Positions 12,770 to 54,312 of a stretch of DNA of 64,000 nt are shown piece by piece. Under the pieces are notes generated by a model. It made no database searches, was not told the DNA's origin, and saw only the letters and a list, made by a program, of their open reading frames with translations. The stretch is from Rhynchopus sp. YZ270_cl-10 (Eukaryota), in contig OZ037834.1 of the NCBI GenBank assembly GCA_964035575.1, forward strand, positions 496,001-560,000, given 5' to 3'. The position numbers and the translations under genes are program-made. The first letter of the stretch is position 1; each line of letters begins with the position of its first letter.

Positions 12770-12925
12770 TTTTTTTTTTGCGCGCCTGCTGCCATCCTTA
12801 GATGTGGTAGCCGTGTTCTGGTGCTCCCTCTCCGGAATCGAACCCTAATTCCCCGTTACCCGTTACAGCCACGGTAGTCCACTACACTACCATCAAAAAA
12901 GCTGATATGGCAGATACTCCTGCGG
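12770..12925 (-). pseudogene. 18S (SSU) rRNA gene fragment
   Basis: Reverse complement reads ...CTGCCATATCAGC...GATGGTAGTGTAGTGGACTACC...ACGGGTAACGGGGAATTAGGGTTCGATTCCGGAGAGGGAGC...CGGCTACCACATCTAAGGATGGCAGCAGGCGCGCAAA, the conserved eukaryotic SSU 5'-domain block. No flanking rDNA. Confidence 0.9.
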
Positions 12926-13217
12926 GCTTTGCACCAGATCAAGTCTTTGTGTTCTATCGCTCGGTTGACCTGTTTCATCCAAAGAACCACTGCTATTGCT
13001 AGCGTCGCTGCGGAGCAACACCCACAACATCACCCCCAAAGAAAATCATCTTACAGTGCTACACACCCACATAAAGGCACCCCCCCTTCCCTGACAAAAA
13101 CCAAAAAAGACCAAACATCAGTCTTGATTGGTTGCTTGGCAGCTTCTCTCCCCCCCCTTCCCCCCCTTTTTTTTTTGTTTTCTTAAGTAACCCCGAAATC
13201 GAAAAGAAAAAGACAAA

Positions 13218-16149
13218 ATGTCAGCAAAACAAGGTGTGGTGGAGAAGATGCTCCAGAAGGACAGAGCAATCCCTGATGTCCCACCACCGAACTGGGAGCC
13301 GTTACCGAGGAACAAGGTATGGATCAGACATATTTTATTTAAAAATGACACAACAGACCACCATATCATGGGCACACTACTAGTTTTTTTTAAAGGGACA
13401 TGCAGTGTAGTGGGGGAATAAACTAGTAGATGCTTCAACGCAACAAACGAACAACAACAGACACAAGTAACTTTTTGGAGGAAAGTGGTACTACTAAGTC
13501 ATAACGACTCAGTGCTAAACTCTACCAATAGATCTCATAGAACTATTCATAAAAAAACAAGCACTGTTTGCTTGACCTACTATTCATTTGAACTAAGTGT
13601 TTTGAAGCACTACTAGTAGTCCCCCCCCCCTCTGACTATTCTGCTGTGGTTACAGTCCCGCCTCTAATTAGTGAATTTCTAATTTATAAATTCGACCAAA
13701 TCTGAAAATATTTAATTAGCGACTTTATAAATTAGAACGTCACTAATTAAGATTTTATAAATTAGCTTGTCCACCCAAATCCCAGTCTGAATCTCTACAA
13801 GACTATCTGCATCTTTCTCTCCGACCATCATGTCTGTCTCCACCACGGAATGAACGGAAAAAATGAAAGAAATATGCCGAAGATGTGACCATCGTCGAGC
13901 AGGCTGTCCTCACCGCCCCGGAGATTGTCACCATCACAGACAACGCCATGGCGGATGACAGAGAAGTTGAAAGTGCCAGCCTCACCGTTCATCGGCGGAC
14001 GCAGGCACTGATGACAGACCGCACGCTGATGTGATGGCGTGGTGGAATGACGCTCACCCAGGACGCCATATTTCTGCTCCCACCATCTCCAAGTACAAAA
14101 CCCACAAAAAGAGAGCGGTTCGTACTTCACCCAAGGCTCTTTTGAACCCCGAGGAGCTGAAGAGGTTTCTCAACCTTACGGGGATGACCCGCAAGTTCAA
14201 CAGCCAACCGATTTGCGTCGCTTGCGAGGGGGATGGTGGTGAAGACGAGGCGGGACACGCCTCGGTGTAACCGACTCCTGGTGCCAGGTCTTTTCATCTC
14301 GTGGGCGAAATAGACCATGGAGGTGAACGGCATGCGCGTCCGCACAGCCACCACCGACCGCACCGTTTTTTACCTCCGTGTATCACTGATTACACACCTC
14401 CTTTTCCACATATTCCTCCAACAGAACCCGCACAAACCCGTCGTCACTTGTGCAGGCAAAAAAATTTTTTTCGGCTCCGCCGGGGAAAATAAATTCAATA
14501 ACTTAGTATTCCCCCCCGAAAAATAAATTAATTCACGACTTTATAAATTAGAACGTCACTAATTAGGATTTTATAAAATAAAACGCTATTAATAATAGGC
14601 GGGACTGTAACATTTTCTCTCTCTTCTATCATAATTTTATCTTCTTTTTTTGTTCTCCTTTTTGTCAGGTATTCGACAGCAAAAACATGCCCATTTTGGC
14701 AAATCTGAAGGCACATTTCTTGAAGGAAGGCCTCCTCGCAGAACGGGACGCAGCAGAGCTGGTCAACCGCGCCGCAACGATTCTGAGAAAAGAACCGAAC
14801 CTGCTGCGTCTGAACGACCCTATCACCGTCTGCGGCGACGTGCACGGCCAGTTTTACGATCTCTGCAAATTGTTCGAAATCGGAGGCGATCCGCACGACC
14901 AGCAGTACCTCTTTTTGGGCGATTTTGTGGACCGTGGGTGCTTTGGGTGCGAAGTGGTGTTTTATTTGATGGCAGTTAAGCTGCGACACCCGGACACCTT
15001 CTTCATGCTCCGTGGCAACCACGAATGCCGCCACTTGACCGCATACTTCAACTTCAAAGCAGAATGCCTTTACAAATACAGCCAAACGACCTACGACCAG
15101 ATCATGTCCTGTTTCGACTGTCTCCCGATTGCCTCTGTTCTCAACGGAAGATTCCTTTGTGTACACGGCGGGTTGAGTCCTGACATCCGTAATGTTGAGG
15201 ACATCAACGCTATTCATCGTTTCAGGGAACCGCCATCTTCAGGACCTATGTGCGATCTGCTCTGGAGCGACCCCATGGACGAAGAGGAGGAAGAGTATTC
15301 CCCAGAGGCCCTGTACGTGCACAACGACCTGAGAGGGTGCTCCTATGTGTTCTCGTACAACGCGGTGTGTCAGTTCCTGGTGAACAACAACCTGCTCTCG
15401 GTGATTCGTGCGCATGAAGCCCAAGATGAAGGGTACCGTCTATACAAGAAATCCTCCACAGGGTTCCCGTCAGTGATCTGCATCTTCAGTGCGCCCAACT
15501 ATTGTGATTCGTACGACAACAAGGCAGCGATCATCCGTTTCCAGAACAACCTGATGAACATCAGGCAGTTCAACAGCAGCCCCCATCCGTACTACCTCCC
15601 GAACTTTATGAACGCCTTTACCTGGTCCATGCCGTTCGTTGCAGAAAAGGTATGAGGCATTCTTTTTGAAAATACTGGTGTGGCTGAAAGGGGGTGCTAC
15701 TTTCTGCTATATTCTGCTATTCTGGGCATCTGTATTTTTTGGTGTGGCTGAAGGGAGGTGCTATTTGTGCTACTTTCTGCTATTTTGGGGTCGTCAGCCA
15801 CACCATGAATCTAATTCTTTGTTAACCCCCTTTACCACAGGTGACCGACATGCTCATCACAATCTGGGATCTGGTGAAGGAATCCGAACAGGAACAAGAA
15901 GACAAACTGCAGGAACGGGGTCAGCACCTCAAGAACAAGATCATGGCAATGGGCAAGATGGCAAAGATCTTCAAGACATTGAGAGAGGAGAACGAGTCAG
16001 TTGTTATGCTGAAGGGGCTGGCAGGGGGGCAGGTGCCGGTGGGTGTTCTGCAACAAGGCCCTGATGCGGTCAAAGCATCGATCTGTTCCTTCCAAGGCGC
16101 AAGAACGATGGACCGTGGAAATGAAAAACGCCCCAATTTCCAGGGATAA
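13218..16149 (+). CDS. CNA: Calcineurin A (PP2B catalytic subunit), ~462 aa; exons 13218-13316, 14669-15649, 15841-16149
   Basis: GDVHG, GDFVDRG, LRGNHE, SAPNY; CnB-binding [16 protein letters not shown]; CaM-binding [22 protein letters not shown]; autoinhibitory [16 protein letters not shown]. Splicing restores [14 protein letters not shown]. Confidence 0.95.
13653..14607 (+). mobile_element. Tc1/mariner/pogo-like deletion derivative (955 bp) in calcineurin intron 1
   Basis: TA|CAGTCCCGCCT ... AGGCGGGACTG|TA. Subterminal repeat GACTTTATAAATTAGAACGTCACTAATTA near both ends. Internal decayed frame with CVAC...RSFHL (PHD-like). Confidence 0.85.
15676..15805. mobile_element. TGGTG...CACCA MITE (compound copy) in calcineurin intron 2. 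Clean copies of the same subfamily: 58704-58780, 63886-63958
   Basis: TIR TGGTGTGGCTGA / TC(A/G)GCCACACCA. Clean copies have 5-bp TSDs TATAT and ACTTC. Confidence 0.85.
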
Positions 16150-21868: not shown

Positions 21869-22931
21869 TGGGGGGGTTTGATAACATGAAGGACATTGCG
21901 TCCCCTGGTGTCTCGGAGAGGGCGTTGTTATTAAGGTGACTAAGGACAGAGAGGCTTAGGTTCATCTTATAAAACTTTTCTTTTTTATTTGCACATAACA
22001 GCTTCACATTTCATATTTCAAGTCGTAAATATTCTTTAATCTAGATGTTCTTGCTTTGTACACAAAAAAAGGTTATATTTATGGTGAAAAATACACAAAA
22101 TCTTCCCCCCCCCAAAACTGCCCCACAAAAAACCTTGCACTCAACAAGACAAAAATACAGAAGCAAAAACGGCAAATAAAAGCAGAAGGAATCTTAAATA
22201 GGAAAAAGGAAACAAAAAAAAATGCAAAGAGTTTTGTATAGAGTAGTATTCTTTGGGTGACTACGCTAATACAGACTTTCAGTTTTTCAAAAAAACTAAA
22301 AAAAAAAAGAGAGAGAGAGAGCGGACGGCTTTATGTTTGTACAGAACCCGTCCTCGTACATTGTGATTGACGATACTATTAAAATAAGACAAAAAAAAAA
22401 AACAACAAAAAAAAGCTACAAAAATATTACAAAAACAAAGTACCCGCCCAAATCCCTTTTTCCTTCATATCACTATCTATCTAGCGTTCAGGTTCCATAC
22501 CTTCACCACCAGGGTAATGGTGGCAGTATTGTGATGGGGACTCCATTGGAATACGCAAAAAATACATCAAAAATACATCACAATGTATTTTGCTGTATTT
22601 TTGCGTATTCCAATGGGCTTCCCATCACAATACTGCCATCATTGCCACAGGGGGTCCTGTTTCCTCTGCATCTGGAGAGATGACATTATCCCTGACAACT
22701 CCGTTTGTGGAAGACATGGATGATTTTTCCTCCTCTTTTTTGGTCAACAAAAAAGAGGAGACGACGTTGGACAAAACTTCATCTTTCGATTGAAAATGGT
22801 ATCTTAATCATTTCTTCCGTGTACACCACCACCACTCACAACGCAGGGGCATTCATTGGGGATATATTATTGACTTTTGTTTTTTTTGTTTTTTTGTGCT
22901 ACACACAACGCAAGTCCTGCAGTCCAGCACA

Positions 22932-25900
22932 ATGCGCGCACTGCTGCTGCTCTCCATGTCGGTGGGGGTGCTCTCCGTCTCTCCAAGCTTCGACACGTCG
23001 CAAGCATCGCTGATCCAAAAGGAGTTTGAAGCCTTTGCCTCTGCCAACGGAGGACGTGGCGTGAAGCTTGTGATCGGAAACGCAAAGACAGGAGAACAGC
23101 AGGTGTTCTCTGCAGGAGATGCGTCGAAGGGAACACCTGTGTCGGAGAAGACGATCTTCAGGATGGGTGGGATGACAAAGGTGATGGCAGGGATGCTGAC
23201 TGCAATCGCATTTGAGGAGGGTGTGGTGAAGCCGACAGACGCAATTGCGAAGTTTGTTCCTGAGCTGGATGCGGCAGGTCTGAAGGCTGTGAGCTCGCAG
23301 GGAGGTGTGACGGTGACGTCGCCGCTGAACAGGAACTTCACGTTCTGGGACTGTCTTGGCATGAAGTGTGGGTTCAGCTACTCACACTGGGGTATGGGCA
23401 CAATGCGTGAGGCTTCCACCATTTCCCCTGCTGATGGTGTGTTCCCCCTTCTCACCAAGAACAAGTGTGCAGGTGCGTACACAACTGCACACGGAGGAAA
23501 GCTGATCCGCGAAGCTGCTTGGCTTGAGTGCAGAAAGCAGATCCCACTTGTGTCGCAGCCAGGACAGCGTTCGTACTACGGATACGACTACGACGTGATT
23601 GGTCTTGCTCTGTCGCGTGCGTACAAGATGAACGCAGAGGAGCTGATGCGGACGAAGATCTGGAGCAAGCTTGGAATGGACTCTGCCTTCATGAGCTGGC
23701 TGCCACAGGGCACGTCCCCGAGTGGTGATGTTGCGGACCTGCGCTTCACGGCACCTGGTGGCTCTGCTTACACCTCTGGATTTGCACCGAGCAACATGCC
23801 TGCAGGAAAAGACCTGTGGGCCAGTGAGGTGAAGACGTGGGACCAGGACATGTGGAACTTGATGGGACCCTTCAAACACGAGACCTCAGCAGATGCAAAG
23901 TACCCAGGTGTGTCTGGGTTTGGTGAGGGTGCCATGATGACGTTTGAGGACTACGCGAAGTTCCTTGTTGCCGTTGTGAACAAAGGGACTTCTGGGAATG
24001 CAACAATCATCTGCGAGACCATGTGGCAGAAGTTCACGAACCCCACTGTCCTGAGCACAGAGGGCATGCGCGCGAACCCCTCCGTTGGCTACCTTGAGGA
24101 AGGGAGCGACTTCTCGAAGCAGAGCGAATGGAAGTATGTCCACACTTCCCCCCCACACTACGTAGGTGATAACCCACCCCACGTCAGTACATACATCTCA
24201 AAGATGTTATAACCGCCACTTCATAACCTTCACCCTTGTGTTTTGTTTTGTTGTTGATTTTCTTGTACTTGGCGGAAATTGAGTGAAACGTTGGAAAAGG
24301 TTTTCAATGGATTCAATGGATGGAAAAGGTTTTCAAAAAAACCTGTGACAAAAAAAAACACCACCTCACAGATGGGGCTTTGCTGGGAGGAGAGGTGGCA
24401 GCGTGGCAAAGAGAGGCAGCCCGCAGTACCCATTCTTCTCTGAGGCGTCTGGCACGACAGGAGAGTGGCAGGGTGTCTTCGGCACCATGTTCAAGGTATG
24501 GTGCTTGGCTTTGAGTGGAGTCTTGAGAGAGGAGTACAGCTCAGTAGACGCTCTCTGCAAGTCCTTGGAAAAGTTCTCGTTTTTTGCCATGTGCAGAAAA
24601 AACAGTTTGTCTGTGCATACCAATGCACCACACACTAGAACGGTACTTGATTGAGTCACAGAACAGAATCACTTCCTTCTTGAACGCATTGAAACGACAA
24701 AACACACAAAACAGTTTGACTTCGAAAGCGGCATCTACGGTGTGGGAGGAGAGAACACACTGCCCTCGCAGAGTGGTGTGGACCAGGCAGGTGCACGGTT
24801 TGTGAAGGAGCACTTCAGCCGCTGGGCATCGCAGCTGTACCGAGGTGACGCTGTGCAGGCACCTCCAGCAAAGGAGGACGCGTTCGATGCCACTGTGCTG
24901 AAGGAGATCCAGGACGAAGTCACACAGTGGTCCAACGCAAACGGTGGGTGGGGTGTCAAGCTTGTGGTTGGAAACACAAAGTCTGGTGGCAGCCACACAA
25001 TCCAGGCGGGAAAGGCGTCGAAGGGAACACCTGTGTCGGAGAAGACGATCTTCAGGATGGGTGGGATGACAAAGGTGATGGCAGGGATGCTGACTGCAAT
25101 CGCATTTGAGGAGGGTGTGGTGAAGCCGACAGACGCGATTGCGAATTTTGTTCCTGAGCTGGATGCGGCAGGTCTGAAGGCTGTGAGCTCGCAGGGAGGT
25201 GTGATGGTGACGTCGCCGCTGAACAGGAACTTCACGTTCTGGGACTGTCTTGGCATGAAGTGTGGGTTCAGCTACTCACACTGGGGTATGGGCACAATGC
25301 GTGAGGCTTCCACCATTTCCCCTGCTGATGGTGTGTTCCCACTTCTCACTGCTGACAAGTGTGCAGGTGCGTACACAACTGCACACGGAGGAAAGCTGAT
25401 CCGCGAAGCTGCTTGGCTTGAGTGCAGAAAGCAGATCCCACTTGTGTCGCAGCCAGGACAGCGTTCGTACTACGGATACGACTACGACGTGATTGGTCTT
25501 GCTCTGTCGCGTGCGTACAAGATGAACGCAGAGGAGCTGATGCGGACGAAGATCTGGAGCAAGCTTGGAATGGACTCTGCCTTCATGAGCTGGCTGCCAC
25601 AGGGCACGTCCCCGAGTGGTGATGTTGCGGACCTGCGCTTCACAGCACCTGACGCCTCTGCTTACGCCTCAGGCACAACACCGAGCAACATGCCTGCAGG
25701 AAAGGACCTGTGGGCCAGTGAGGTGAAGACGTGGGACCAGGACATGTGGAACTTGATGGGACCCTTCAAACACGAGACCTCGACAGATGCAAAGTACCCA
25801 GGTGTATCTGGGTTTGGTGAGGGTGCCATGATGACGTTTGAGGACTACGCGAAGTTCCTTCATGTGCTGTCGAACAAAGGTGTTGGGAGCAACGGTGTGC

Positions 25901-28365
25901 GTCTTGTGAAGGAGAGCACGTGGACGTGGTTCATGTCTCCCGTTCAGGAGGCTGCTGAGGGAATGTCCTCCGCTCCCGCAGTGTGCTTTGCATCTGCAAC
26001 AGGTGAGATGTCGGCCCAGGCACTTTGGAAGTGGGGCTTTGCGAGTCTGACGAAGGAGGCTGCATCCACAGAAGCAGGAGGTCCGTCCCCTTCACTGGCA
26101 CAGCAGGACACTGTTGCAGCTGGGCAGTGGAGTGGTGAGTTTGGAACGATGTTCAAGTTTGATGCTGAGGCAGGGGTGTACGGAGTGGGAGGAGAGAACA
26201 CACTTCCGGGACAGTCAGGCGCTGGGAGGAAGGGTATTGACTTCATCCGCAGCAACTACGACAGGTGGATGGGGAAGCTGGCTCGTGGTCGCCACACAAA
26301 GCCTGCACAGACTGTCGCAGACGTGCAGAAGTCGGCATCTGTGGTTGAGATCCAGAAGGAAGTGGAGGTGTGGTCGAAGAGCTTCGGACGTGGTGTGAAG
26401 CTTGTGATCGGAAACGCAAAGACAGGAGAGCAGCAGGTGTTCTCTGCAGGAGATGCGTCGAAGGGAACACCTGTGTCGGAGAAGACGATCTTCAGGATGG
26501 GTGGGATGACAAAGGTAATGGCAGGGATGCTGACGGCAATCGCATTTGAGGAGGGTGTGGTGAAGCCGACAGACGCGATTGCGAAGTTTGTTCCTGAGCT
26601 GGATGCAGCAGGTCTGAAGGCTGTGAGCTCGCAGGGAGGTGTGACGGTGACGTCGCCGCTGAACAGGAACTTCACGTTCTGGGACTGTCTTGGGATGAAG
26701 TGTGGGTTCAGCTACTCGCACTGGGGTATGGGCACAATGCGTGAGGCTTCCACCATTTCCCCTTCTGACGGCGTGCTTCCTTTCCTGTCGAGCAACAAGT
26801 GTGCAGGTGCGTACACAACTGCACACGGAGGAAAGCTGATCCGTGAAGCTGCTTGGCTTGAGTGCAGAAAGCAGATCCCACTTGTGTCGCAGCCAGGACA
26901 GCGTTCGTACTACGGATACGACTACGACGTGATTGGTCTTGCTCTGTCGCGTGCGTACAAGATGAACGCAGAGGAGCTGATGCGGACGAAGATCTGGAGC
27001 AAGCTTGGAATGGACTCTGCCTTCATGAGCTGGCTGCCACAGGGCACGTCCCCGAGTGGTGATGTTGCGGACCTGCGCTTCACAGCACCTGACGCCTCTG
27101 CTTACGCCTCAGGCACAACACCGAGCAACATGCCTGCAGGAAAAGACCTGTGGGCCAGTGAGGTGCAGACGTGGGACCAGGACATGTGGAACTTGATGGG
27201 ACCCTTCAAACACGAGACCTCAACAGATGCAAAGTACCCAGGTGTGTCTGGGTTTGGTGAGGGTGCCATGATGACGTTTGAGGACTACGCGAAGTTCCTC
27301 TCTGCGTTGCTGAACAACGGCAACACACAGACAGAGAAGCTTCTTGGCGACGCGATGCTGCGTGCGATGGCTGGGAGCACAACAAGCGAGGACACGGGTC
27401 TGGGTGCCACCCCTGCGGTGCCGTTCGTTGGCGACGAATACGCATCGACCACCGAGTGGAAGTGGGGCTATGCACACACCACCACCGGGGAGGGCTGGAG
27501 CGGCGAATTCGGCACCGTCTTCCGCTTCAACCGCGAGACGGGCGACTACTTGGTGGGTGGCGAGAACACTCTACCTGCACAGGCAGCACGCCACCATGCG
27601 AAGGAGTTCATCCTGGCCAACGCACAACGCTGGACTGGCATGCTCCGTTGTGACACCACAAACAACTTTGTCGCCCCGAACGTTACCAACGGCACAGAAC
27701 CCCTCACTACCACTGAGGGCTCTGGAGATGGAACCACTACGGGTGGCGCAGCAAACGAGGAAGGTACCAGCTCAAGCAGCGGCGCTGGCGCGTGGTTCTT
27801 GATCCTTATTGTGGCTGCCAGCACGCTGCTGCTGTGCACTGCAGCAGGCATCTTCATGCTGCAGAACATTAAGGAACAGCGCCTGCACCTCTCCGACATC
27901 GGCAACATCGAGGACGAAATCATGCAAGAAGACGTATGTAACCCATCTTCTAACACAGACTCTTTTTTTTAGCAACTGTGGACGAATGGTTGCTCTGCAC
28001 TGTCGGAGGATATACTGTACCACTTCCAAATAAAGTAGTCAAATTACCCGTAAAAGGACCAGATCCCCAAAACTTATTTGGAGAATTTCTGTACCTGGAA
28101 ACACTTGACAACAAACTTGTGGAAAACCAGCGCTGCTGATGCTCCGTGATAACGAATATGATAAGGTGACTAAGCACAGAGAGGCTTAGGATTATCTTAT
28201 GAACGTTTCTTTCTTTTCAACCTCTCTTTCCCCCTTAAGTACCCTATCCACACCCCCTCTTAACAACAGTCGAAGGAGCTTCAAGAACCCCACGAGTCTT
28301 TGACTGACTACTCTGGCGGCAGCATGAGCCGTTCCCAGGGGCCTGGGCAGGAGTTTTCGCTCTAA
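22932..28365 (+). CDS. Type I membrane protein with 3 beta-lactamase/EstB-fold (serine hydrolase) domains, catalytic Ser->Gly, ~1546 aa; exons 22932-24133, 24372-24495, 24715-27933, 28270-28365
   Basis: Signal peptide MRALLLLSMSVGVLS. Each domain has KTIFRMGGMTK, PLVSQPGQRSYYGYDYDVIG, IWSKLGMDS and W(Q/S)G(V/E)FGT. T/G/S stalk, TM AWFLILIVAASTLLLCTAAGIFML, tail ending EFSL. Introns 1-2 are supported by alignment to the intronless domains 2 and 3. Confidence 0.9.
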
Positions 28366-29710
28366 AACGAAATGACATCTTTTTTTGCAAAAAAAAATAT
28401 AACAAAAAACCTTTTTTGTTTGTCTCAGCTCTTGGTTGAAGCTCAGTGTGTTCCACCCTTTTGCTGTCCCCTCTCCTCCTTCGCACCCCCATATTTAGTA
28501 GCAAAACAAACATATAGTGGAGTACACTCTAGGGTGGCTGCACTGATCCAACTAAGTTTTCAAAAAAAAAGAAGAAAAATAGAACCCATTCAGTCTGACA
28601 CTAATATCAGCATTTTTTTCAAAAAGAAAAAGGCTGTGTCCCCCAAGATGTATTTTCATGACAGGCTTGCCTTGAACATGTCATCACCTCTCCCTCTCGT
28701 ACATCCCCCCCGTCTTCTTTTATTCATTAAATTTTCTTTTTCTTTTTTGACACTTTGTGATCAAGGTGGCTAAGCACAGAAAGGCTTAGGTTCATCTTGT
28801 AAAAACGTTTTCTTTTAAAAGGCGCAAATCAGCTTATTATAGGCTTCTATCTTGTGATAGGCTGTAATCAAACGATTTTGTTTCTTTTTGCACAAAACAA
28901 AGGGTATATAGAGTGATGCTGTAATGCTTGAAGTGTACCGCATAATAGACAAAATAGGGTTTACAGTGGATACAACACTGCCACCCCTGTCTTTTGTGGT
29001 GCTCGTTGCTGGTGGGGTGAGTGTGTATGCGTGTCCGAGGGTTTTCATACTTGAGAGAGAAAACCAAGGGGTTGTCAAACTGAAGGCAAAAACGATGATG
29101 GGTAGTTACATCCCCTTAACCCTTTGTGCGTGAGATTACAGTCAAAGAAAACCCAGTTTCTAGTTGGGTGATGGTTTTATGCAACAGAAATAATCAAGCG
29201 AGAGAGCACGTCTGTATCCGCAGTTTTCCTTCTTTGCTGAAGGAAAATGAAAATATGTTGGAAGGGAAGGAGAGAAATGAGTATGTTTTTTAAATTGAGT
29301 TTTTTTTTTTTTTTTTTGTTACATGCGAAAATGAACACAGTGTGTAATCGGTACAAATGACGTCCATCTCTTTACTGAGATGGCTGTGTGACCAAAGGGG
29401 GGGGGACAATACGATACAGCTTTTGGAGAGTTGAAGACGGTTTACGTCTTCTTTTAAGCACCTTTTTTTTTTCCTGTTTTTTTTTTTTTGTTTTTTGTTT
29501 TTTGTGACACTCTAAACACAACGCAAATCCAAGTGGAACACCTCACACAAAACAGAGGATACATTCCTCCCACAAGGGTTCTGTGTTAAATGCATGCTTG
29601 CCACCCCTCCCGTAGTGGTGCCCTGTATTGTGATGTTTGCCCTATCAGAATACATCATACACACCACAAGACAGCTTGTATTGTGGTGTGTATGATGTAT
29701 TCTTTATTAT

Positions 29711-29833
29711 TGGTGTGATTCAGGGGGTACGCACAACCCACGGAAGTACCACGGAGAACTGTTTCGGGTTATATTAAGATTTGCGGAGCACCTTCGGGGG
29801 AACCACGGAGAATCCGTTTGGGTGATCACACCA
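29711..29833. mobile_element. TGGTG...CACCA MITE, subfamily 2 (123 bp). Interrupted relative at 62582-63360
   Basis: TIR TGGTGTGAT / ATCACACCA. TSD ATTAT. Confidence 0.85.
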
Positions 29834-30687
29834 ATTATTATGGGCAATTCTATCACCAATACAGCCACCACGAACCCCCCGTACCCCTCCACCACCACCA
29901 CCGTCGCCCCCTTTAGGACCGCCTGGCTCCCCTTATGCAGATCGATGTGGTGGCGCATTTAGCCTTTGAGATGCTTTGAGGGGGGATTTTTGTTTATTTC
30001 ATAGCTGCAAAAAAAAAACCCTTCTTTTGTTCTCAGATTCGAAAGAGGGGTTTTTGTTTTTTTATTCAAACTAAAAAGATGGGATCATTTTTTTGTTGAT
30101 CCCGAAACCTATGCTATCAATTTATTGAAGGCATATGTTGAAATAATTTTTGACATTGTTTACGCAATATTTTTTCGACAAAAAGCATTTCCCTTCGTCA
30201 TGTCTCTCTGTGAGACAGCATGGTTCGTGTGTATTTCACATCAAAAAGATTTTTTTTTTGGAGTTCGTCCGGAAATGATGGCGTTCACACAAAAAACAAA
30301 GGCATCTATCTTTCTCCCCATCACTTTTGCTTTTTTTCCCCCTAAGGTCTCACGGAACCATGTGGGGTGACAAATACGTGACTATTACCCCCAACGGGTT
30401 CCCCTCTTGGCTGTCTTCAAAAATTGAAGAAATTAAAGACATCTAAGACCGACAGAAGACAGAAGACAAGGTGTACCCTTACCTACCCCGCCACGTGTCG
30501 CGTGTCGAGGTGTATTGTGTGTCTTCGTATTGTACGTGTTTGTCACCCCGGTGGTACCCACACTGCACCCACAACTAATATTACTATATCAAAAAACACA
30601 GGTAGAATAGTCTCTTATTAGGGTAGTTGTGTGTTAGCAACAAAGAAATAAAAAAAAATAAAGACGCAAGTCCTGCAGTCCAGCACA

Positions 30688-33600
30688 ATGCGCGCACTGC
30701 TGCTGCTCTCCATGTCGGTGGGGGTGCTCTCCGTCTCTCCAAGCTTCGACACGTCGCAAACATCGCTGATCCAAAAGGAGTTTGAAGCCTTTGCCTCTGC
30801 CAACGGAGGACGTGGTGTGAAGCTTGTGATCGGAAACGCAAAGACAGGAGAGCAGCAGGTGTTCTCTGCAGGAGATGCGTCGAAGGGAACACCTGTGTCG
30901 GAGAAGACGATCTTCAGGATGGGTGGGATGACAAAGGTAATGGCAGGGATGCTGACGGCAATCGCATTTGAGGAGGGTGTGGTGAAGCCGACAGACGCGA
31001 TTGCGAAGTTTGTTCCTGAGCTGGATGCAGCAGGTCTGAAGGCTGTGAGCTCGCAGGGAGGTGTGACGGTGACGTCGCCACTGAACAGGAACTTCACGTT
31101 CTGGGACTGTCTTGGGATGAAGTGTGGGTTCAGCTACTCGCACTGGGGTATGGGCACAATGCGCGATCTTTCCACTATTTCCCCTGCTGATAGTGTGCTT
31201 CCTTCTCTCGCGAGCAACAAGTGTGCAGGTGCGTACACAACTGCACACGGAGGGAAGCTGATCCGCGAAGCTGCTTGGCTTGAGTGCAGAAAGCAGATCC
31301 CACTTGTGTCGCAGCCAGGACAGCGTTCGTACTACGGATACGACTACGACGTGATTGGTCTTGCTCTGTCGCGTGCGTACAAGATGAACGCAGAGGAGCT
31401 GATGCGGACGAAGATCTGGAGCAAGCTTGGAATGGACTCTGCCTTCATGAGCTGGCTGCCACAGGGCACGTCCCCGAGTGGTGATGTTGCGGACCTGCGC
31501 TTCACTGCACCTGGTGGCTCTGCTTACGCCTCAGGCAAAACACCGAGCAACATGCCTGCAGGAAAAGACCTGTGGGCCAGTGAGGTGAAGACGTGGGACC
31601 AGGACATGTGGAACTTGATGGGACCCTTCAAACACGAGACCTCAGCAGATGCAAAGTACCCAGGTGTGTCTGGGTTTGGTGAGGGTGCCATGATGACGTT
31701 TGAGGACTACGCGAAGTTCCTTGTCGCAGTTGTGAACAAAGGTGCTTCTGGGAATGCAACAATCATCTGCGAGACCATGTGGCAGAAGTTCACGAACCCC
31801 ACTGTCCTGAGCACAGAGGGCATGCGTGTGAGTCCCTCAGTTGGCTACCTTGAGGAGGGGAGCGACTTCTCGAAGCAGAGCGAGTGGAAGTATGTGCACA
31901 CTTTCCCCCCACACCACGTGATAACCCACCGCATGTCAGTACATTCATCCCAAAGATGTTATAACCACCACTTCATAGCTTCGCCCTTGTGTTTTGTTTT
32001 GTTTTGTTTTGTTGTTCATTTTCTTGTACTTCGCGGAAATTGAGTGAAACTGGAAAAGATTTTCAAAAAAAAACCTGTGACAAAAAAACACCACCTCACA
32101 GATGGGGCTTTGCTGGGAGGAGAGGTGGCAGCGTGGCAAAGAGAGGCAGCCCGCAGTACCCATTCTTCTCTGAGGCGTCAGGCACGACAGGAGAGTGGCA
32201 GGGTGTCTTCGGCACCATGTTCAAGGTATGGTGCTTGGCTTTGCGTGGAGGCTGAGAGAGGAGAACTATAACAAAACAAACGTGTTCGCTTTCTTTGCTT
32301 TGTGCATTCAAGAGGTCATTTTGATTTGTTACTCAATCAAGTATCACCACGGCGCTTGATTGAGTATAGTGGTTCCTGGCACGGTGTAGACCTTGCTCGT
32401 ATTCTGCATTGAAACCACAAAACACACAAAACAGTTCGACTTCGAAAGCGGGATCTACGGTGTGGGAGGAGAGAACACACTGCCCTCTCAGAGTGGTGTG
32501 GACCAGGCAGGTGCACGGTTTGTGAAGGAGCACTTCAGCCGCTGGGCATCGCAGCTGTACCGAGGTGACGCTGTGCAGGCACCTCCAGCAAAGGAGGACG
32601 CGTTCGATGCCACTGTGCTGAAGGAGATCCAGGATGAAGTCACACAGTGGTCCAACGCAAACGGTGGGTGGGGTGTCAAGCTTGTGGTTGGAAACACAAA
32701 GTCTGGTGGCAGCCACACAATCCAGGCGGGAAAGGCGTCGAAGGGAACACCTGTGTCGGAGAAGACGATCTTCAGGATGGGTGGGATGACAAAGGTGATG
32801 GCAGGGATGCTGACTGCAATCGCATTTGAGGAGGGTGTGGTGAAGCCGACAGACGCGATTGCGAATTTTGTTCCTGAGCTGGATGCGGCAGGTCTGAAGG
32901 CTGTGAGCTCGCAGGGAGGTGTGACGGTGACGTCGCCGCTGAACAGGAACTTCACGTTCTGGGACTGTCTTGGCATGAAGTGTGGGTTCAGCTACTCACA
33001 CTGGGGTATGGGCACAATGCGTGAGGCTTCCACCATTTCCCCTGCTGATGGTGTGTTCCCCCTTCTCACCAAGAACAAGTGTGCAGGTGCGTACACAACT
33101 GCAAACGGAGGAAAGCTGATCCGTGAAGCTGCTTGGCTTGAGTGCAGAAAGCAGATCCCACTTGTGTCGCAGCCAGGACAGCGTTCGTACTACGGATACG
33201 ACTACGACGTGATTGGTCTTGCTCTGTCGCGTGCGTACAAGATGAACGCAGAGGAGCTGATGCGGACGAAGATCTGGAGCAAGCTTGGAATGGACTCTGC
33301 CTTCATGAGCTGGCTGCCACAGGGCACGTCCCCGAGTGGTGATGTTGCGGACCTGCGCTTCACGGCACCTGGTGGCTCTGCTTACACCTCTGGATTTGCA
33401 CCGAGCAACATGCCTGCAGGAAAAGACCTGTGGGCCAGTGAGGTGAAGACGTGGGACCAGGACATGTGGAACTTGATGGGACCCTTCAAACACGAGACCT
33501 CAGCAGATGCAAAGTACCCAGGTGTGTCTGGGTTTGGTGAGGGTGCCATGATGACGTTTGAGGACTACGCGAAGTTCCTTCATGTGCTGTCGAACAAAGG

Positions 33601-36203
33601 TGTTGGGAGCAACGGTGTGCGTCTTGTGAAGGAGAGCACGTGGACGTGGTTCATGTCTCCTGTGCAGGAGGCTGCTGAGGGAATGTCTTTTTCGCCTGCC
33701 ACTAGGTTCACTTCGGCCACTGGTGAGATGTCGGCCCAGGCACTTTGGAAGTGGGGCTTTGCGAGTCTGACGAAGGAGGCTGCATCCACAGAAGCAGGTG
33801 GTCCGTCCCCTTCACTGGCACAGCAGGACACTGTTGCAGCTGGGCAGTGGAGTGGTGAGTTTGGAACGATGTTCAAGTTTGATGCTGAGGCAGGGGTGTA
33901 CGGAGTGGGAGGAGAGAACACACTTCCGGGACAGTCAGGCGCTGGGAGGAAGGGTATTGACTTCATCCGCAGCAACTACGACAGGTGGATGGGGAAGCTG
34001 GCTCGTGGTCGCCACACAAAGCCTGCACAGACTGTCGCAGACGTGCAGAAGTCGGCATCTGTGGTTGAGATCCAGAAGGAAGTGGAGGTGTGGTCGAAGA
34101 GCTTCGGACGTGGTGTGAAGCTTGTGATCGGAAACGCAAAGACAGGAGAGCAGCAGGTGTTCTCTGCAGGAGATGCGTCGAAGGGAACACCTGTGTCGGA
34201 GAAGACGATCTTCAGGATGGGTGGGATGACAAAGGTAATGGCAGGGATGCTGACGGCAATCGCATTTGAGGAGGGTGTGGTGAAGCCGACAGACGCGATT
34301 GCGAAGTTTGTTCCTGAGCTGGATGCAGCAGGTCTGAAGGCTGTGAGCTCGCAGGGAGGTGTGACGGTGACGTCGCCGCTGAACAGGAACTTCACGTTCT
34401 GGGACTGTCTTGGGATGAAGTGTGGGTTCAGCTACTCGCACTGGGGTATGGGCACAATGCGTGAGGCTTCCACTATTTCCCCTGCTGATAGTGTGTTCCC
34501 ACTTCTCACCAAGAACAAGTGTGCAGGTGCGTACACAACTGCAAACGGAGGGAAGCTGATCCGTGAAGCTGCTTGGCTTGAGTGCAGAAAGCAGATCCCA
34601 CTTGTGTCGCAGCCAGGACAGCGTTCGTACTACGGATACGACTACGACGTGATTGGTCTTGCTCTGTCGCGTGCGTACAAGATGAACGCAGAGGAGCTGA
34701 TGCGGACGAAGATCTGGAGCAAGCTTGGAATGGACTCTGCCTTCATGAGCTGGCTGCCACAGGGCACGTCCCCGAGTGGTGATGTTGCGGACCTGCGCTT
34801 CATGGCACCTGACGCTTCTGCTTACGCCTCAGGCAAAACACCGAGTAACATGCCTGCAGGAAAAGACCTGTGGGCCAGTGAGGTGCAGACGTGGGACCAG
34901 GACATGTGGAACTTGATGGGACCCTTCAAACACGAGACCTCAACAGATGCAAAGTACCCAGGTGTGTCTGGGTTTGGTGAGGGTGCCATGATGACGTTTG
35001 AGGACTACGCGAAGTTCCTCTCTGCGTTGCTGAACAACGGCAACACACAGACAGAGAAGCTTCTTGGCGACGCGATGCTGCGTGCGATGGCTGGGAGCAC
35101 AACAAGCGAGGACACGGGTCTGGGCGCTTCCCCTGGAGTTCCTTTCTTTGGCGACGAATACGCATCGACCACCGAGTGGAAGTGGGGCTATGCACACACC
35201 ACCACCGGGGAGGGCTGGAGCGGCGAATTCGGCACCGTCTTCCGCTTCAACCGCGAGACGGGCGACTACTTGGTGGGTGGCGAGAACACTCTACCTGCAC
35301 AGGCAGCACGCCACCATGCGAAGGAGTTCATCCTGGCCAACGCACAACGCTGGACTGGCATGCTCAACTGCGACGCCACCATGAACACGACTACCGACAC
35401 AACGAATGTCACCTTCCCCACTGACGCACCCTCTAACGACAACACCACCAATGGCACAGACGTGCCCGACGCAGACGACACCACCTCCCCCTCTGATGCT
35501 GACAACACGACCTACAGCAACACCACCGTCACACCTGACGACGCATCCAGCACCAATTCCCCTAACGAGACCAACTCGACCACCTCCCCTGTCAACATGC
35601 TCGACAGCGCGGTGCACGAAAAGATTGGCGACAACGACGACGGTGCGAGCATCTGGCTCATCCTCCTCGCAGTACTGGGAGGGCTCTGTGTGGTGCTCTC
35701 TGTCATTGGGGCTGTGATCTACAAGAAAACCAGGAAGCAAAGACTGCACCTTTCTGACCTTACCAATATGGATGACGAAATCTTTTATGAGCACTACGTA
35801 TGTAAACGCATTTTCAAAGGAAAAAAAATACCAAAATAGAGGGTTTCGTATTTCAAGTCAACTTTCATTATGTTCCTGATGTAAACCACGAAACAATCGA
35901 TGTAGGACTGCAGTTGGGGGTACACCCACAACCCCGGTACATTGTCATTAGAGGGTTGTTGTATTTCAAGCCAACTTTTCTTTCATCACGGTGACTAAGC
36001 ACGAGAGACTTAGGATCATCTTATAAACCTTTCTTGATTTGCCTCAATAGAGTTTCCCTTACCACCACCCCCCATCCCCACAGGACCAAGAGCTCAGCGG
36101 ATTCGAGTCCCCCTCTGATGGAGCAGCACCAAGCCCCACAGCATCTGGGGGCAACGCCAGCAGTATGCATTCCTCTTCAGAGAACGTAAACTTCCGCCTG
36201 TAA
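30688..36203 (+). CDS. Paralogue 2 of the triple pseudo-beta-lactamase membrane protein, ~1602 aa; exons 30688-31889, 32102-32225, 32435-35797, 36084-36203
   Basis: Same exon structure and near-identical domains. Longer T/D/N-rich stalk with many N-x-T/S sequons. TM IWLILLAVLGGLCVVLSVIGAVIY. Tail ending NFRL. Confidence 0.9.
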
Positions 36204-37165
36204 GATTTTTTTTCTCTCTCAAATTGATTTTTTTTTTTTTTTTTTGAAAAGTTATGTTTTTTTTTTCCAATTATTTCAAAGTTGCAATTTCTTTCATTTT
36301 TCATTTTATTTTTTTTTCTATTCTTTACGGTGGCTAAGCACAGAGTGGCTTAGAACCAGTCAAAAACAATCCTTCCTTCCACCCCTCTCCCCCCTTCTTA
36401 TCGCGTATCCCTCAAGGTTGTACCATAGTATCAATCATTTTCCCCGTTCCCCTCTGCTTTTTTAAAAAAGTTTTTGCCCCGAGAGTGAGATGATTTATCA
36501 CAAGAGTTATGCAAAAAAAAAAAGACAGTGGAGATTTGCACGAACTGTGGCAACACAACCGAGGCAACTACACTACAACAATTTATCAAAAAAAAAGGGG
36601 GCACGTTTTTCCTGTTCAGTAAATCCCCCGCTTATGTGTATACAATGGTGAAGTAAATGGATTGGTTTGTGGTTTTGTGGTTTCACCGTTGATTTAAAAT
36701 GATGAAATTACAATTAAGGACCATGTGTTTTCTCTAAGACAAAAATTTCAAAAAAAAAAAAAATACAAAATTCTCGGGTTAGGATGAACTGCATCTATAC
36801 CTTTGAAATTCCTCTAGCCTTAGAGGGTCGTTGTGCACAAGAACCCATCCTCAGATAGGGTGATTGTCGAAAACTACAAAAAAGCAAAAAAAAGCCAAAC
36901 ATTAAGTATGTATACTAACTCATGCGGGGGGGTATATAGACTGGAGTACCGTGCTTTTGCAATAACACACTTCCACTTAGATGGGGGAAGTGTTTTGTCT
37001 CACCGTAGCAAAACTAAAAGAAAAAAAGAAAATGCGCCATTTCCCCCTATTTTTCCCCCAAATGGAGCAATCGTTCAAAACTGTTTTTTTTTTCTTCTTC
37101 AAGGTGACTAATTATAGGTTCATCTTATAAACTTTTCAGAATGTAAATCACGAAAATGGATTGTA

Positions 37166-52559: not shown

Positions 52560-54312
52560 GCGTGATGCGTCCGCAGGGTCCGGGGAGTGACTGACTGACA
52601 CTGTGCTGTGTCTTTGTTGCTTCTCCTCCTTTTCTTTTAGTAAACGCGTTTTTATCTTCTTCTGCTGTTGACGAAGTGTTTTCGCGCCGCAAAAAAAAAG
52701 AAGCTTTGTTTTCAGCCTGTCTTTTCGTTTTCTTTGTTTCCCCCCCCCCTTTTTTTTGTGATGCCCACTGTGCTGGGGAATGTGCAGCTGCGTTTTTTGG
52801 ATAGCGTTTCACAACAGAAGTGGGGATGGATGTGTGTAGTGTATGTGGGACAGATGTCCGGGTGTTCAGTTGTACCCCGGCCCTGTCCCCGCTCCATCGT
52901 TCTATCCCTTTCTGTTGCTGTTTTCCTGTTGCACACAACACACGTTCCCACAAAGCTTGTGCGGACGATCCTGTGTCAACTGGGGGCTGAAACGTGAAAT
53001 AGGAGAGAAGGCTGTGTTATGTATCATATCATATGCCTGAGCCTGTCCAAAGTACGCAAAAACTAAAGCAACCCCTCGCTGCCCTTCCCTTTCCTTCCCC
53101 CCCTCTTCTTGTCTTTATCAGCACAAAGACATCCTTGTGTCTTTTATTTTGAAAGATGGCATGTATCTGATAATGTCGTTATTTTTGGTTGTTTTTGTTT
53201 TGTTTGTTTTGCGTCTTTTTTATCATCTCTTTTTTTGACATTGTTGCGTGTGCCCAAGCAGTCTTCTTCACACCCTTATTGTGTGTCGCGATCGTATATC
53301 CCTGGCAGTGGGGCTGGGATGGTATGGGTTCCACTTCTGTTTTTGTATGCAGTCCTGTGTGTGTCGTTGTTGCTCTCTTCTACCCCTGCACCTTAGGTTT
53401 GTGCCGTTTGCACTTTCATGACCTTTTTTATTGTATTTGCCCATCCCCTCCCGCAGCTCGGTTCCTGTTTCCTGTTTGGGTTTTGTTGTGTGCGGTGTTC
53501 TGTTGTCCATCTGATGTTTCGGGGACGATAGAGGCTCGCATAAGTAACCGATTTTCTGCGTCTTTGCTTTTGAAGTTTTTGAAGGCAGAGACACATGAAC
53601 AAAAAGAACGGGAACGAAAAGTAGGAACCGTACTGTGTGGGGGGTGGGAAACAAAGGTGATGCGGGGGCAAAAGGTAGAGAGCATCTGTGAAAAAACACA
53701 GTGGGACGAATGCTGCGAAAAAGAAAAAAACTATATTTTAAACAATGCACAGGAGAAAATAGCAAAACAAACGGAAAAAGAAAAGAAGATTGTATTTATT
53801 TATTTCCCCTTTGCACGAGCTCGACCGAGATGCGTTTTAGCACATTTTCAACTTCTCTTTATTTCACCGCCTGCATCCACTTTGAGGCATCATAGCTGAT
53901 ACCACACACACAATACCACTTGGGACCATATTCTACACAAAGAATTACCCTTATTAGTTATCAAAAACACACACAACACTTTAGTGGGCTATACTCCGTT
54001 CAGGCGTTACCCCACTCTATATTCGTTATCAATCGTACACACACAACCTTGGGACCATATTCCACAAAGAATTACCCTTATTATCAAAACACACACACAC
54101 CACCCCACCCCACAAAAACCTCCAGGGGGAGAGGGAGACCGTCCAACACACCGGACGTAAGGGGGTGGTCAGAAGGTGATCACACAAAAGGGGGTTATTA
54201 TCCCCAATATCGACGGGGAGTTATTTTTTTTTCCTTTTCTCCTTTTCTTTGCGGTACACCAAAGACACCTCTCTCTCTCTCTCTTTTTGTAACATTTTAA
54301 GAATTTGGAGTG

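Follow-up and report, generated by a model that had tools for sequence, protein, structure and literature searches.

Tandem genes in Rhynchopus sp. YZ270_cl-10 for predicted membrane proteins with three esterase-like domains carrying glycine in place of the nucleophile serine

Pseudoenzymes derived from serine hydrolases are well known, and among them are the neuroligins, in which Gly replaces the catalytic Ser, the stalk is O-glycosylated and a PDZ ligand forms the C-terminus. Class C β-lactamases are marked by the Ser of S-x-x-K, the Asn of Y-x-N and a K-T-G box, and R61-type DD-peptidases and penicillin-binding proteins (PBPs) of low molecular weight by an acylatable Ser and an H/K-T-G box. 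Here, we describe a locus in a 64,000-nucleotide stretch of DNA from Rhynchopus sp. YZ270_cl-10 (GenBank assembly GCA_964035575.1, contig OZ037834.1, positions 496,001 to 560,000, forward strand; the whole stretch is referred to as the window herein), in which two tandem four-exon genes encode predicted type I membrane proteins, each with three PF00144 domains that have Gly where the catalytic Ser is expected. Since the catalytic Ser is replaced by Gly, these domains likely bind rather than cleave their target, and we give a probability of roughly 60% to the reading that they are non-hydrolysing ligand-binding modules of the cell surface.

The family VIII carboxylesterases EstU1 (4IVI), Est-Y29 (4P6B), EstB (1CI8), EH7 (7PP3) and EstG (7U1C) are the best matches of the window domains in both sequence and structure. 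Like these enzymes, the window domains have the SxxK Lys, the Tyr of P-G-x4-Y and a W-x-G box replacing K-T-G. Unlike them, they have Gly at the nucleophile position (6/6), are only 17-19% identical, contain insertions (e.g. model positions 135-148, 255-276 and 281-290) and belong to eukaryotic proteins with three tandem domains, a stalk, a transmembrane (TM) helix and a tail. With class C β-lactamases and R61-type DD-peptidases they have in common the overall fold (Z about 31) and the position of the SxxK helix, but not the Ser, the Asn of Y-x-N or a K-T-G or H-x-G box; the window motifs at the class C positions are G-M-T-K, Y-G-[YAQ] and W-x-G. As judged from sequence and model, the domains form a divergent eukaryote-type branch of PF00144 nearest the family VIII carboxylesterases and, since the defining Ser is absent, they are not to be filed as esterases, class C β-lactamases or PBPs.

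Three further systems bear on the comparison. LACTB is eukaryotic and of the same fold, albeit a distant match (Z 32.3); its published description states that the catalytic Ser is conserved in all LACTB-type metazoan homologues (PMC2266909). It differs from the window proteins, which have Gly, in keeping the Ser and in not being a surface-anchored multi-domain protein. The same nucleophile substitution as in the window was made in S70G class A β-lactamases, which are laboratory mutants of another class and not natural proteins; in CTX-M, S70G blocks acylation and traps the intact substrate with its carbonyl in the oxyanion hole (PMC5829062). Lastly, cholinesterase-like adhesion molecules (neuroligins, gliotactin/GLIT-1) are described as having a carboxylesterase-like ectodomain that lacks its catalytic residues, a single-pass TM helix and a short intracellular segment (PMC5773152). 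By analogy, the window proteins have the same design, with their topology taken from a hydropathy window and inspection; the adhesion molecules differ in being metazoan, in their alpha/beta-hydrolase fold and in having one domain versus three, and we read the likeness as one of design and not of descent. Our literature search found no description of a conserved, membrane-anchored, multi-domain family of dead β-lactamase-fold proteins in protists, and the main text of the Diplonema papillatum genome paper does not contain the word "lactamase", although its supplements could list such genes. What is new is a pseudoenzyme of known fold in a new architecture and lineage.

Gene models and domain architecture

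Gene 1 (four exons, 22932-28365, 1546 aa) and gene 2 (four exons, 30688-36203, 1602 aa) lie in tandem, with long open frames at 22794-24212, 24655-27972, 30652-32043 and 32390-35839. Their features are given below, with a slash marking the splice site.

22932..24133, + strand: gene 1 exon 1, with the start codon, an N-terminus that looks signal-like on inspection (MRALLLLSMSVGVLSV) and the greater part of domain 1; donor ATGGAA/GTATGT
24372..24495, + strand: gene 1 exon 2, a 124-nt mini-exon with the W-Q-G box of domain 1; acceptor CACAG/ATGGGG, donor TTCAAG/GTATGG
24715..27933, + strand: gene 1 exon 3, from the end of domain 1 through domains 2 and 3, the stalk and the TM helix to the start of the tail
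24895-26292, + strand: gene 1 domain 2, in exon 3
26335-27660, + strand: gene 1 domain 3, in exon 3
27661-27798, + strand: gene 1 Ser/Thr/Gly-rich stalk, in exon 3
27799-27861, + strand: gene 1 TM helix, in exon 3
28270..28365, + strand: gene 1 exon 4, the end of the cytoplasmic tail, closing ...QEFSL and stop
30688..31889, + strand: gene 2 exon 1
32102..32225, + strand: gene 2 exon 2, mini-exon with the W-Q-G box
32435..35797, + strand: gene 2 exon 3, from the end of domain 1 through domains 2 and 3, the stalk and the TM helix to the start of the tail
32615-34012, + strand: gene 2 domain 2, in exon 3
34055-35380, + strand: gene 2 domain 3, in exon 3
35381-35656, + strand: gene 2 stalk, rich in N-glycosylation sequons (8 NxS/T), in exon 3
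35657-35719, + strand: gene 2 TM helix, in exon 3
36084..36203, + strand: gene 2 exon 4, the end of the tail, closing ...NVNFRL and stop

The introns of both genes are GT-AG with GTATG donors (6/6). This splice model holds because domain 1, coded in three pieces, tiles the domain hidden Markov model (HMM) at positions 2-382, 376-420 and 419-464, because spliced domain 1 is collinear both with domains 2 and 3, which have no introns, and with a complete open reading frame (ORF) from an Artemidia motanka transcript, and because the fourth exon restores a C-terminal F-x-[LV] that is also the end of the orthologues. An earlier reading made from the letters alone (the sequence-only reading) had ended the locus at 36203, which is the stop of the fourth exon of gene 2. 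A six-frame search of the window with the domain HMM found no PF00144 copy besides those of the two genes.

In both spliced proteins, a hydrophobic, signal-like N-terminus is followed by three PF00144 domains, after which come a stalk rich in Ser and Thr, a single TM helix and a short tail; this matches the architecture that the sequence-only reading had assigned to them. The domains are ~440-465 aa each and are joined by linkers of ~15 aa, the TM segment is 21 residues long and strongly hydrophobic (Kyte-Doolittle mean 2.5 and 2.9), and the tail is 55 or 65 aa long. Counted from 14 residues upstream of the coordinates listed above, the gene 1 stalk is 60 aa long and that of gene 2, which has 8 NxS/T sequons, 106 aa, the latter being almost twice as long as the former and sequon-rich. 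Stalk, TM helix and tail were present at all six C-termini examined from the clade of Gly-bearing domains described below (the Gly clade) and in two relatives outside it, and five of these six Gly-clade C-termini end in F-x-[LV]. The stalks are rich in Ser, Thr and Pro and vary in length (44-192 aa) and composition among paralogues and species. The linker between domains 1 and 2 of both genes contains R-G-D (LYRGDAVQ, protein residues about 484-486), which is probably due to chance because the orthologues differ there (LMKGES, LNLPTK).

Nucleophile position, fold and relatives

The motif FRMGGMTK was found six times on the + strand, and its second Gly is encoded by GGG in all six copies, each of them where the sequence-only reading had placed it:

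23169..23171, + strand: GGG (Gly) at the nucleophile position, gene 1 domain 1
25063..25065, + strand: the same, gene 1 domain 2; aligned by HMMER to Ser100 of 4IVI
26503..26505, + strand: the same, gene 1 domain 3; G58 in the model, where it stands at the N-terminus of helix 57-73
30925..30927, + strand: the same, gene 2 domain 1
32783..32785, + strand: the same, gene 2 domain 2
34223..34225, + strand: the same, gene 2 domain 3

When PDB sequences were searched with phmmer, EstU1 (4IVI) came first (E 2e-8), with IFRMGGMTK aligned to IFRIYSMSK. The second Gly therefore stands at the position of EstU1 Ser100, and the family profile aligned with EstU1 in the same register (E 2.5e-19). In the AlphaFold2 model of gene 1 domain 3, made from 108 aligned sequences (mean predicted local distance difference test score (pLDDT) 86.8, predicted template modelling score (pTM) 0.91), this residue is G58, in the first turn of helix 57-73. 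The model shows the two-domain PF00144 fold, alpha/beta plus all-alpha, in which the N-terminus of helix 2 holds the nucleophile position. Alignment and model thus both place Gly at the nucleophile position, as had been proposed. The six copies are not independent, because duplication and gene conversion produced them; independent support comes from the orthologues, which at 44-58% identity and in four other sources have Gly at the same position. Altogether, Gly is fixed in 15/15 domains from five sources, and a transcript fragment of Diplonema ambulator reads FRMGGMTK too.

Against Pfam PF00144, the four long ORFs scored 68, 108.8, 67.5 and 112.1 bits, all above the gathering cut-off of 27. 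A Foldseek search with the model returned EstG, EH7, EstU1 and Est-Y29 on top (E 1e-20 to 1e-22), EstG being the best. By VIA-align, Est-Y29 reached Z 37.6 (root-mean-square deviation 2.8, 361 residues), EstU1 36.8, EstG 36.7 and EstB 36.5, and esterases and transesterases as the best matches spanned Z 33.5-37.6, while LACTB reached 32.3, the R61 DD-peptidase 31.1 and class C enzymes 30.6-30.8. The NCBIfam class C models all stayed far under their cut-off (38.6 and 35.5 bits versus 415 for the bla_class_C equivalog), and the other NCBIfam matches, to AmpH and AcmB, were also sub-threshold. The β-lactamase/family VIII esterase fold named in the sequence-only reading is thus supported by the PF00144 scores, the AlphaFold model and esterase Z values of 36-38. 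Because of the sequence and structure rankings and the failure of the class C models, the domain is, as far as sequence and model indicate, a family-VIII-esterase-like member of PF00144 and neither an AmpC nor a PBP.

Catalytic positions were counted in an 80-row alignment, comparing Gly-clade with bacterial-like rows:

Nucleophile: Gly in 15/15 Gly-clade rows; Ser in 48/48 bacterial-like rows
SxxK Lys: 15/15 Gly-clade; 48/48 bacterial-like
Catalytic Tyr (P-G-x4-Y; model Y194, EstU1 Y218): 15/15 Gly-clade; 48/48 bacterial-like
W of W-x-G: 13/13 Gly-clade; 42/48 bacterial-like
G of W-x-G: 13/13 Gly-clade; 46/48 bacterial-like

The retention of the Lys, the motif-2 Tyr and the W-x-G box reported in the sequence-only reading therefore extends to the whole Gly clade, but the catalytic Tyr is Y194 in PGQRSYYGYD, with which EstU1 Y218 aligns, and not the Tyr of GFSYSHWG (model Y128). 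The latter was considered for this role and rejected; it is a different, also common Tyr, and both are retained. The W-x-G box is W-Q-G in window domain 1 and W-S-G in domains 2 and 3. Since its middle residue may be Q, S, F, Y or D, the W-S-G Ser does not qualify as a conserved substitute nucleophile. The residue preceding the nucleophile position is Gly in all 15 Gly-clade rows and specific to this clade.

Single-sequence and profile searches of 5.8 billion clusters yielded as close matches the window genes, orthologues on two long contigs, A. motanka and one Ser-bearing relative, followed by a drop to bacterial-like proteins of ~25% identity. Of the two other long contigs, one has two tandem genes and the other a single gene for three-domain orthologues, which are 50-58% identical to the window proteins; the A. 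motanka protein, a complete transcript ORF with one domain, stalk and TM helix, is 44-47% identical. The only named Gly-clade members, A. motanka and D. ambulator, are diplonemids, so that the source of the window is probably one as well. An exhaustive profile search of 1.84 billion representatives gave 4705 matches at E<=1e-3 and only 17 at E<=1e-30, and in the ESM Atlas only generic bacterial PF00144 clusters were found. Ser is kept in P0009, P0020 (with P0169), P0026, P0028, P0035-P0037 and P0041. These relatives, which come from metagenomes and assemblies, carry F-R-[LM]-A-S-M-T-K, are 31-39% identical, do not have the Cys pair specific to the Gly clade and fall within the same divergent clade as the Gly domains (Shimodaira-Hasegawa-like approximate likelihood ratio test (SH-aLRT) 99).

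The 80 rows were placed in a tree by an IQ-TREE quick search (LG+G4). They comprised all family hits in which about 216 or more residues were aligned, eleven members of a further eukaryote-like clade (MRWMSMTK type), the 45 single-domain hits of 370-470 aa that came first in the list and three bacterial-like proteins from earlier searches; fragments under about 250 aa, including that of D. ambulator, were left out. The 15 Gly rows formed one clade (SH-aLRT 98) with P0021, whose N-terminus is missing, as its sister and the Ser-bearing group P0009, P0020, P0022 and P0023 next outward, and one Ser-to-Gly change is enough on this tree. The Gly clade, the Ser-bearing group and the MRWMSMTK clade split from the 48 bacterial-like rows with support 100. 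Outside the Gly clade, P0021 and P0024 reach the C-terminus and have stalk, TM helix and tail, and the Ser-bearing P0009 and P0169 are multi-domain. Because these relatives are TM-anchored or multi-domain with Ser, the ancestor was probably already surface-anchored, multi-domain and Ser-bearing.

Within the MRWMSMTK clade, P0033 reads IIWEAFSL and P0049 reads LRWGAFSQ, with Ala at the nucleophile position and the Lys lost as well. From these motifs, the two appear to be further, separate pseudoenzymes of the wider family that are more decayed than the Gly clade.

Selection, gene conversion and proposed function

Between gene 1 and gene 2, the Nei-Gojobori ratio of nonsynonymous to synonymous divergence (dN/dS) was 0.175, 0.222 and 0.246 for domains 1-3, with dS of 0.07-0.10. 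Purifying selection of this strength (dN/dS 0.18-0.25) agrees with the functional pseudoenzyme proposed in the sequence-only reading. Comparing the three domains of one gene with each other gave at least 93% identity in alignment columns 31-325 and only 10-50% in the first 30 and last 140 columns. In the core (~285 codons), dS between domains was 0.065-0.114, the same as between genes, and was lowest (0.016) for gene 1 domain 1 versus gene 2 domain 2; in the C-terminal third, it ranged from 1.65 to saturation between domains versus 0.10-0.15 between genes. By blastn, the core of gene 1 domain 1 is 98.5% identical to that of gene 2 domain 2 and 93.7% identical, over a longer collinear alignment, to its positional counterpart. 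A tree of the core columns united the six window domains in one clade (100), whereas in a tree of the C-terminal columns window domains 3 and 2 each grouped with the corresponding domain of one other species (98 and 86, respectively). The core and C-terminal dS values and trees therefore indicate that the three-domain layout is older than the species split and that the core has been homogenised since. Gene conversion would most simply account for this homogenisation.

Variation among the six copies affects only 30/295 core columns. These form clusters at model positions 139-156 and 252-264, where their patterns are mosaic, and both patches coincide with insertions relative to bacterial-like relatives. 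The locus is a clean example of sharply bounded concerted evolution of six domain copies in two genes. As DNA, the tandem duplicates (22908-27645 versus 30664-35365) are collinear, at 93.7-97.3% identity, only over a span that opens 24 nt before the ATG and closes with domain 3; most 3′ parts have diverged, as have the stalks and the regions upstream.

We propose the following mechanism. Without the Ser, acyl-enzyme formation would be impossible, so the preserved pocket would hold an ester- or amide-bearing ligand without turnover, for which the engineered S70G β-lactamases set a precedent. Three such pockets on a glycosylated stalk would make a multivalent receptor or adhesin, and the short tail, which has a conserved K/R-rich stretch next to the membrane and F-x-[LV] at the C-terminus, may couple the protein to sorting or signalling. 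Gene conversion would hold the core of the six domains near-identical, while the two variable patches may tune specificity. Support comes by contrast, as the Ser-less P0033 and P0049 have lost the Lys too, whereas the Gly clade keeps the rest of the site. Diplonemids are among the most abundant marine heterotrophs and, to our knowledge, their cell biology is almost unknown; if the domains are ligand binders, they offer a handle on diplonemid contact with prey, symbionts or substrates. A more specific version, which we regard as doubtful, is that diplonemids independently invented a neuroligin-style receptor, in which a Ser-to-Gly family VIII esterase clamps an ester or amide of the envelope of prey or symbiont bacteria uncleaved, with pockets in series, gene conversion and variable loops. 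If true, this would be a type of pattern-recognition module that has not been described in eukaryotes. The locus has no bearing on antibiotic resistance, because the domains lack the nucleophile and fall short of every class C model; the pseudoenzyme family is lineage-specific and not a resistance gene.

Several observations weigh against a role as binding modules of the surface. The kept Lys, Tyr and W-x-G are equally expected of a residual or altered catalyst. The Gly clade also has cysteines of its own, at model C119 (14/15; Leu in the other rows) and C124 (15/15; Ser, Ala or Gly in the others, with Cys in 0/65 rows outside the clade). The signal peptide and topology were assigned by eye and with a hydropathy window and not by a dedicated predictor. 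The first variable patch falls in the only low-confidence stretch of the model (pLDDT 52-60). Lastly, no RNA for this organism was found in a sequencing-run search; the four runs covering the locus are DNA, because their contigs cover introns.

The first two of these points would also fit domains that are still enzymes of a non-canonical mechanism, with either a water activated by the Lys and Tyr in the space left by the Ser-to-Gly change or C124 as a substitute nucleophile. The invariance of Lys (15/15), Tyr (15/15) and W-x-G (13/13), the restriction of C124 to the Gly clade and the additional Gly before the nucleophile position, which would enlarge the cavity, are all in keeping with such an enzyme. 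We nevertheless consider it unlikely. The engineered Ser-to-Gly change of the class A nucleophile is used precisely because acylation is blocked, C124 aligns with the small residue of a conserved H-T-S-G turn that is no known catalytic position, and C119 and C124 may simply form a disulfide of an extracellular protein.

About as improbable is a structural protein of the glycocalyx or coat, in which the dead domains are stable, protease-resistant spacers on a mucin-like stalk and the pocket has no specific ligand. Stalks that are Ser/Thr/Pro-rich and variable in length and composition, and a tandem duplication whose copies are kept uniform by concerted evolution, are what such a coat might show. 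A spacer, however, is not expected to keep Lys, Tyr and W-x-G invariant across 44-58% identity, and the other Ser-less relatives lost the Lys too.

Fainter still are the prospects of a receptor for D-Ala-D-Ala peptidoglycan stems or β-lactams recently derived from bacteria, which joins two suggestions of the sequence-only reading, namely a possibly bacterial origin and D-Ala-D-Ala as a ligand. It could appeal to the fold common to R61 (Z 31.1) and class C enzymes (Z 30.6-30.8) and to the many horizontally acquired genes reported for diplonemids (PMC10161547). As to the ligand, esterases (Z 36-38) outrank the R61 DD-peptidase (Z 31), the class C models fail, neither the Asn of Y-x-N nor a K-T-G box is present, and EstG has been described as inactive on cell-wall substrates. 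Because the closest solved relatives act on esters and EstG was so described, D-Ala-D-Ala is neither favoured nor supported as the ligand. As to the origin, the nearest relatives are non-bacterial-like, with Ser-bearing, multi-domain and TM-anchored proteins among them, the bacterial-like rows split off with support 100, and the position of the first intron is common to three genomes. When 185,579 prokaryote species were scanned with the family alignment, 131 stretches fitted the pattern, of which tblastn confirmed none as a relative. From these comparisons, a recent bacterial origin is not supported, and any such origin would be ancient.

Decaying pseudogenes or an assembly artefact, with which the high similarity of the repeats and the lack of RNA in the run search would agree, are barely credible in view of the 1546- and 1602-codon frames open across four exons each, the dN/dS of 0.18-0.25, the presence of the locus in DNA-run contigs from three studies and the same-architecture orthologues in two other genomes and in the transcriptomes of two named species.

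Other features of the window

A conserved element of ~40 nt recurs around the two genes. Its core, CTAAGCACAGAGNGGCTTAG, lies inside AAGGTGACTAAGC...GCTTAGGWTCATCTTAT, with a predicted hairpin of -7.6 to -11.4 kcal/mol. A pattern search found four copies versus none expected by chance, and visual inspection added a fifth, weaker one near 35996:

21940-21959, + strand: copy ~1 kb upstream of gene 1
28170-28189, + strand: copy in the last intron of gene 1
28770-28789, + strand: copy downstream of gene 1
about 35996-36015, + strand: weaker copy in the last intron of gene 2
36334-36353, + strand: copy downstream of gene 2

The two intronic copies stand about 90-100 nt before the acceptor, and each copy precedes a T-rich tract. 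The element may be a processing signal or a small mobile element.

Elsewhere in the window, six more open frames of 187-506 aa had no Pfam match, and the following features were recognised:

12783-12968, - strand: match to the Rfam small-subunit ribosomal RNA (SSU rRNA) model RF02542 (76.4 bits, E 4.8e-19) at model positions 44-293 only, an isolated SSU-rRNA-like fragment far from any full rRNA gene
14582-15652, + strand: frame for a calcineurin-like metallophosphoesterase (PF00149, E 1.4e-37)
54301-58557, + strand: frame of 1419 aa that has a protein kinase domain at its C-terminal end (PF00069, E 1.8e-61)

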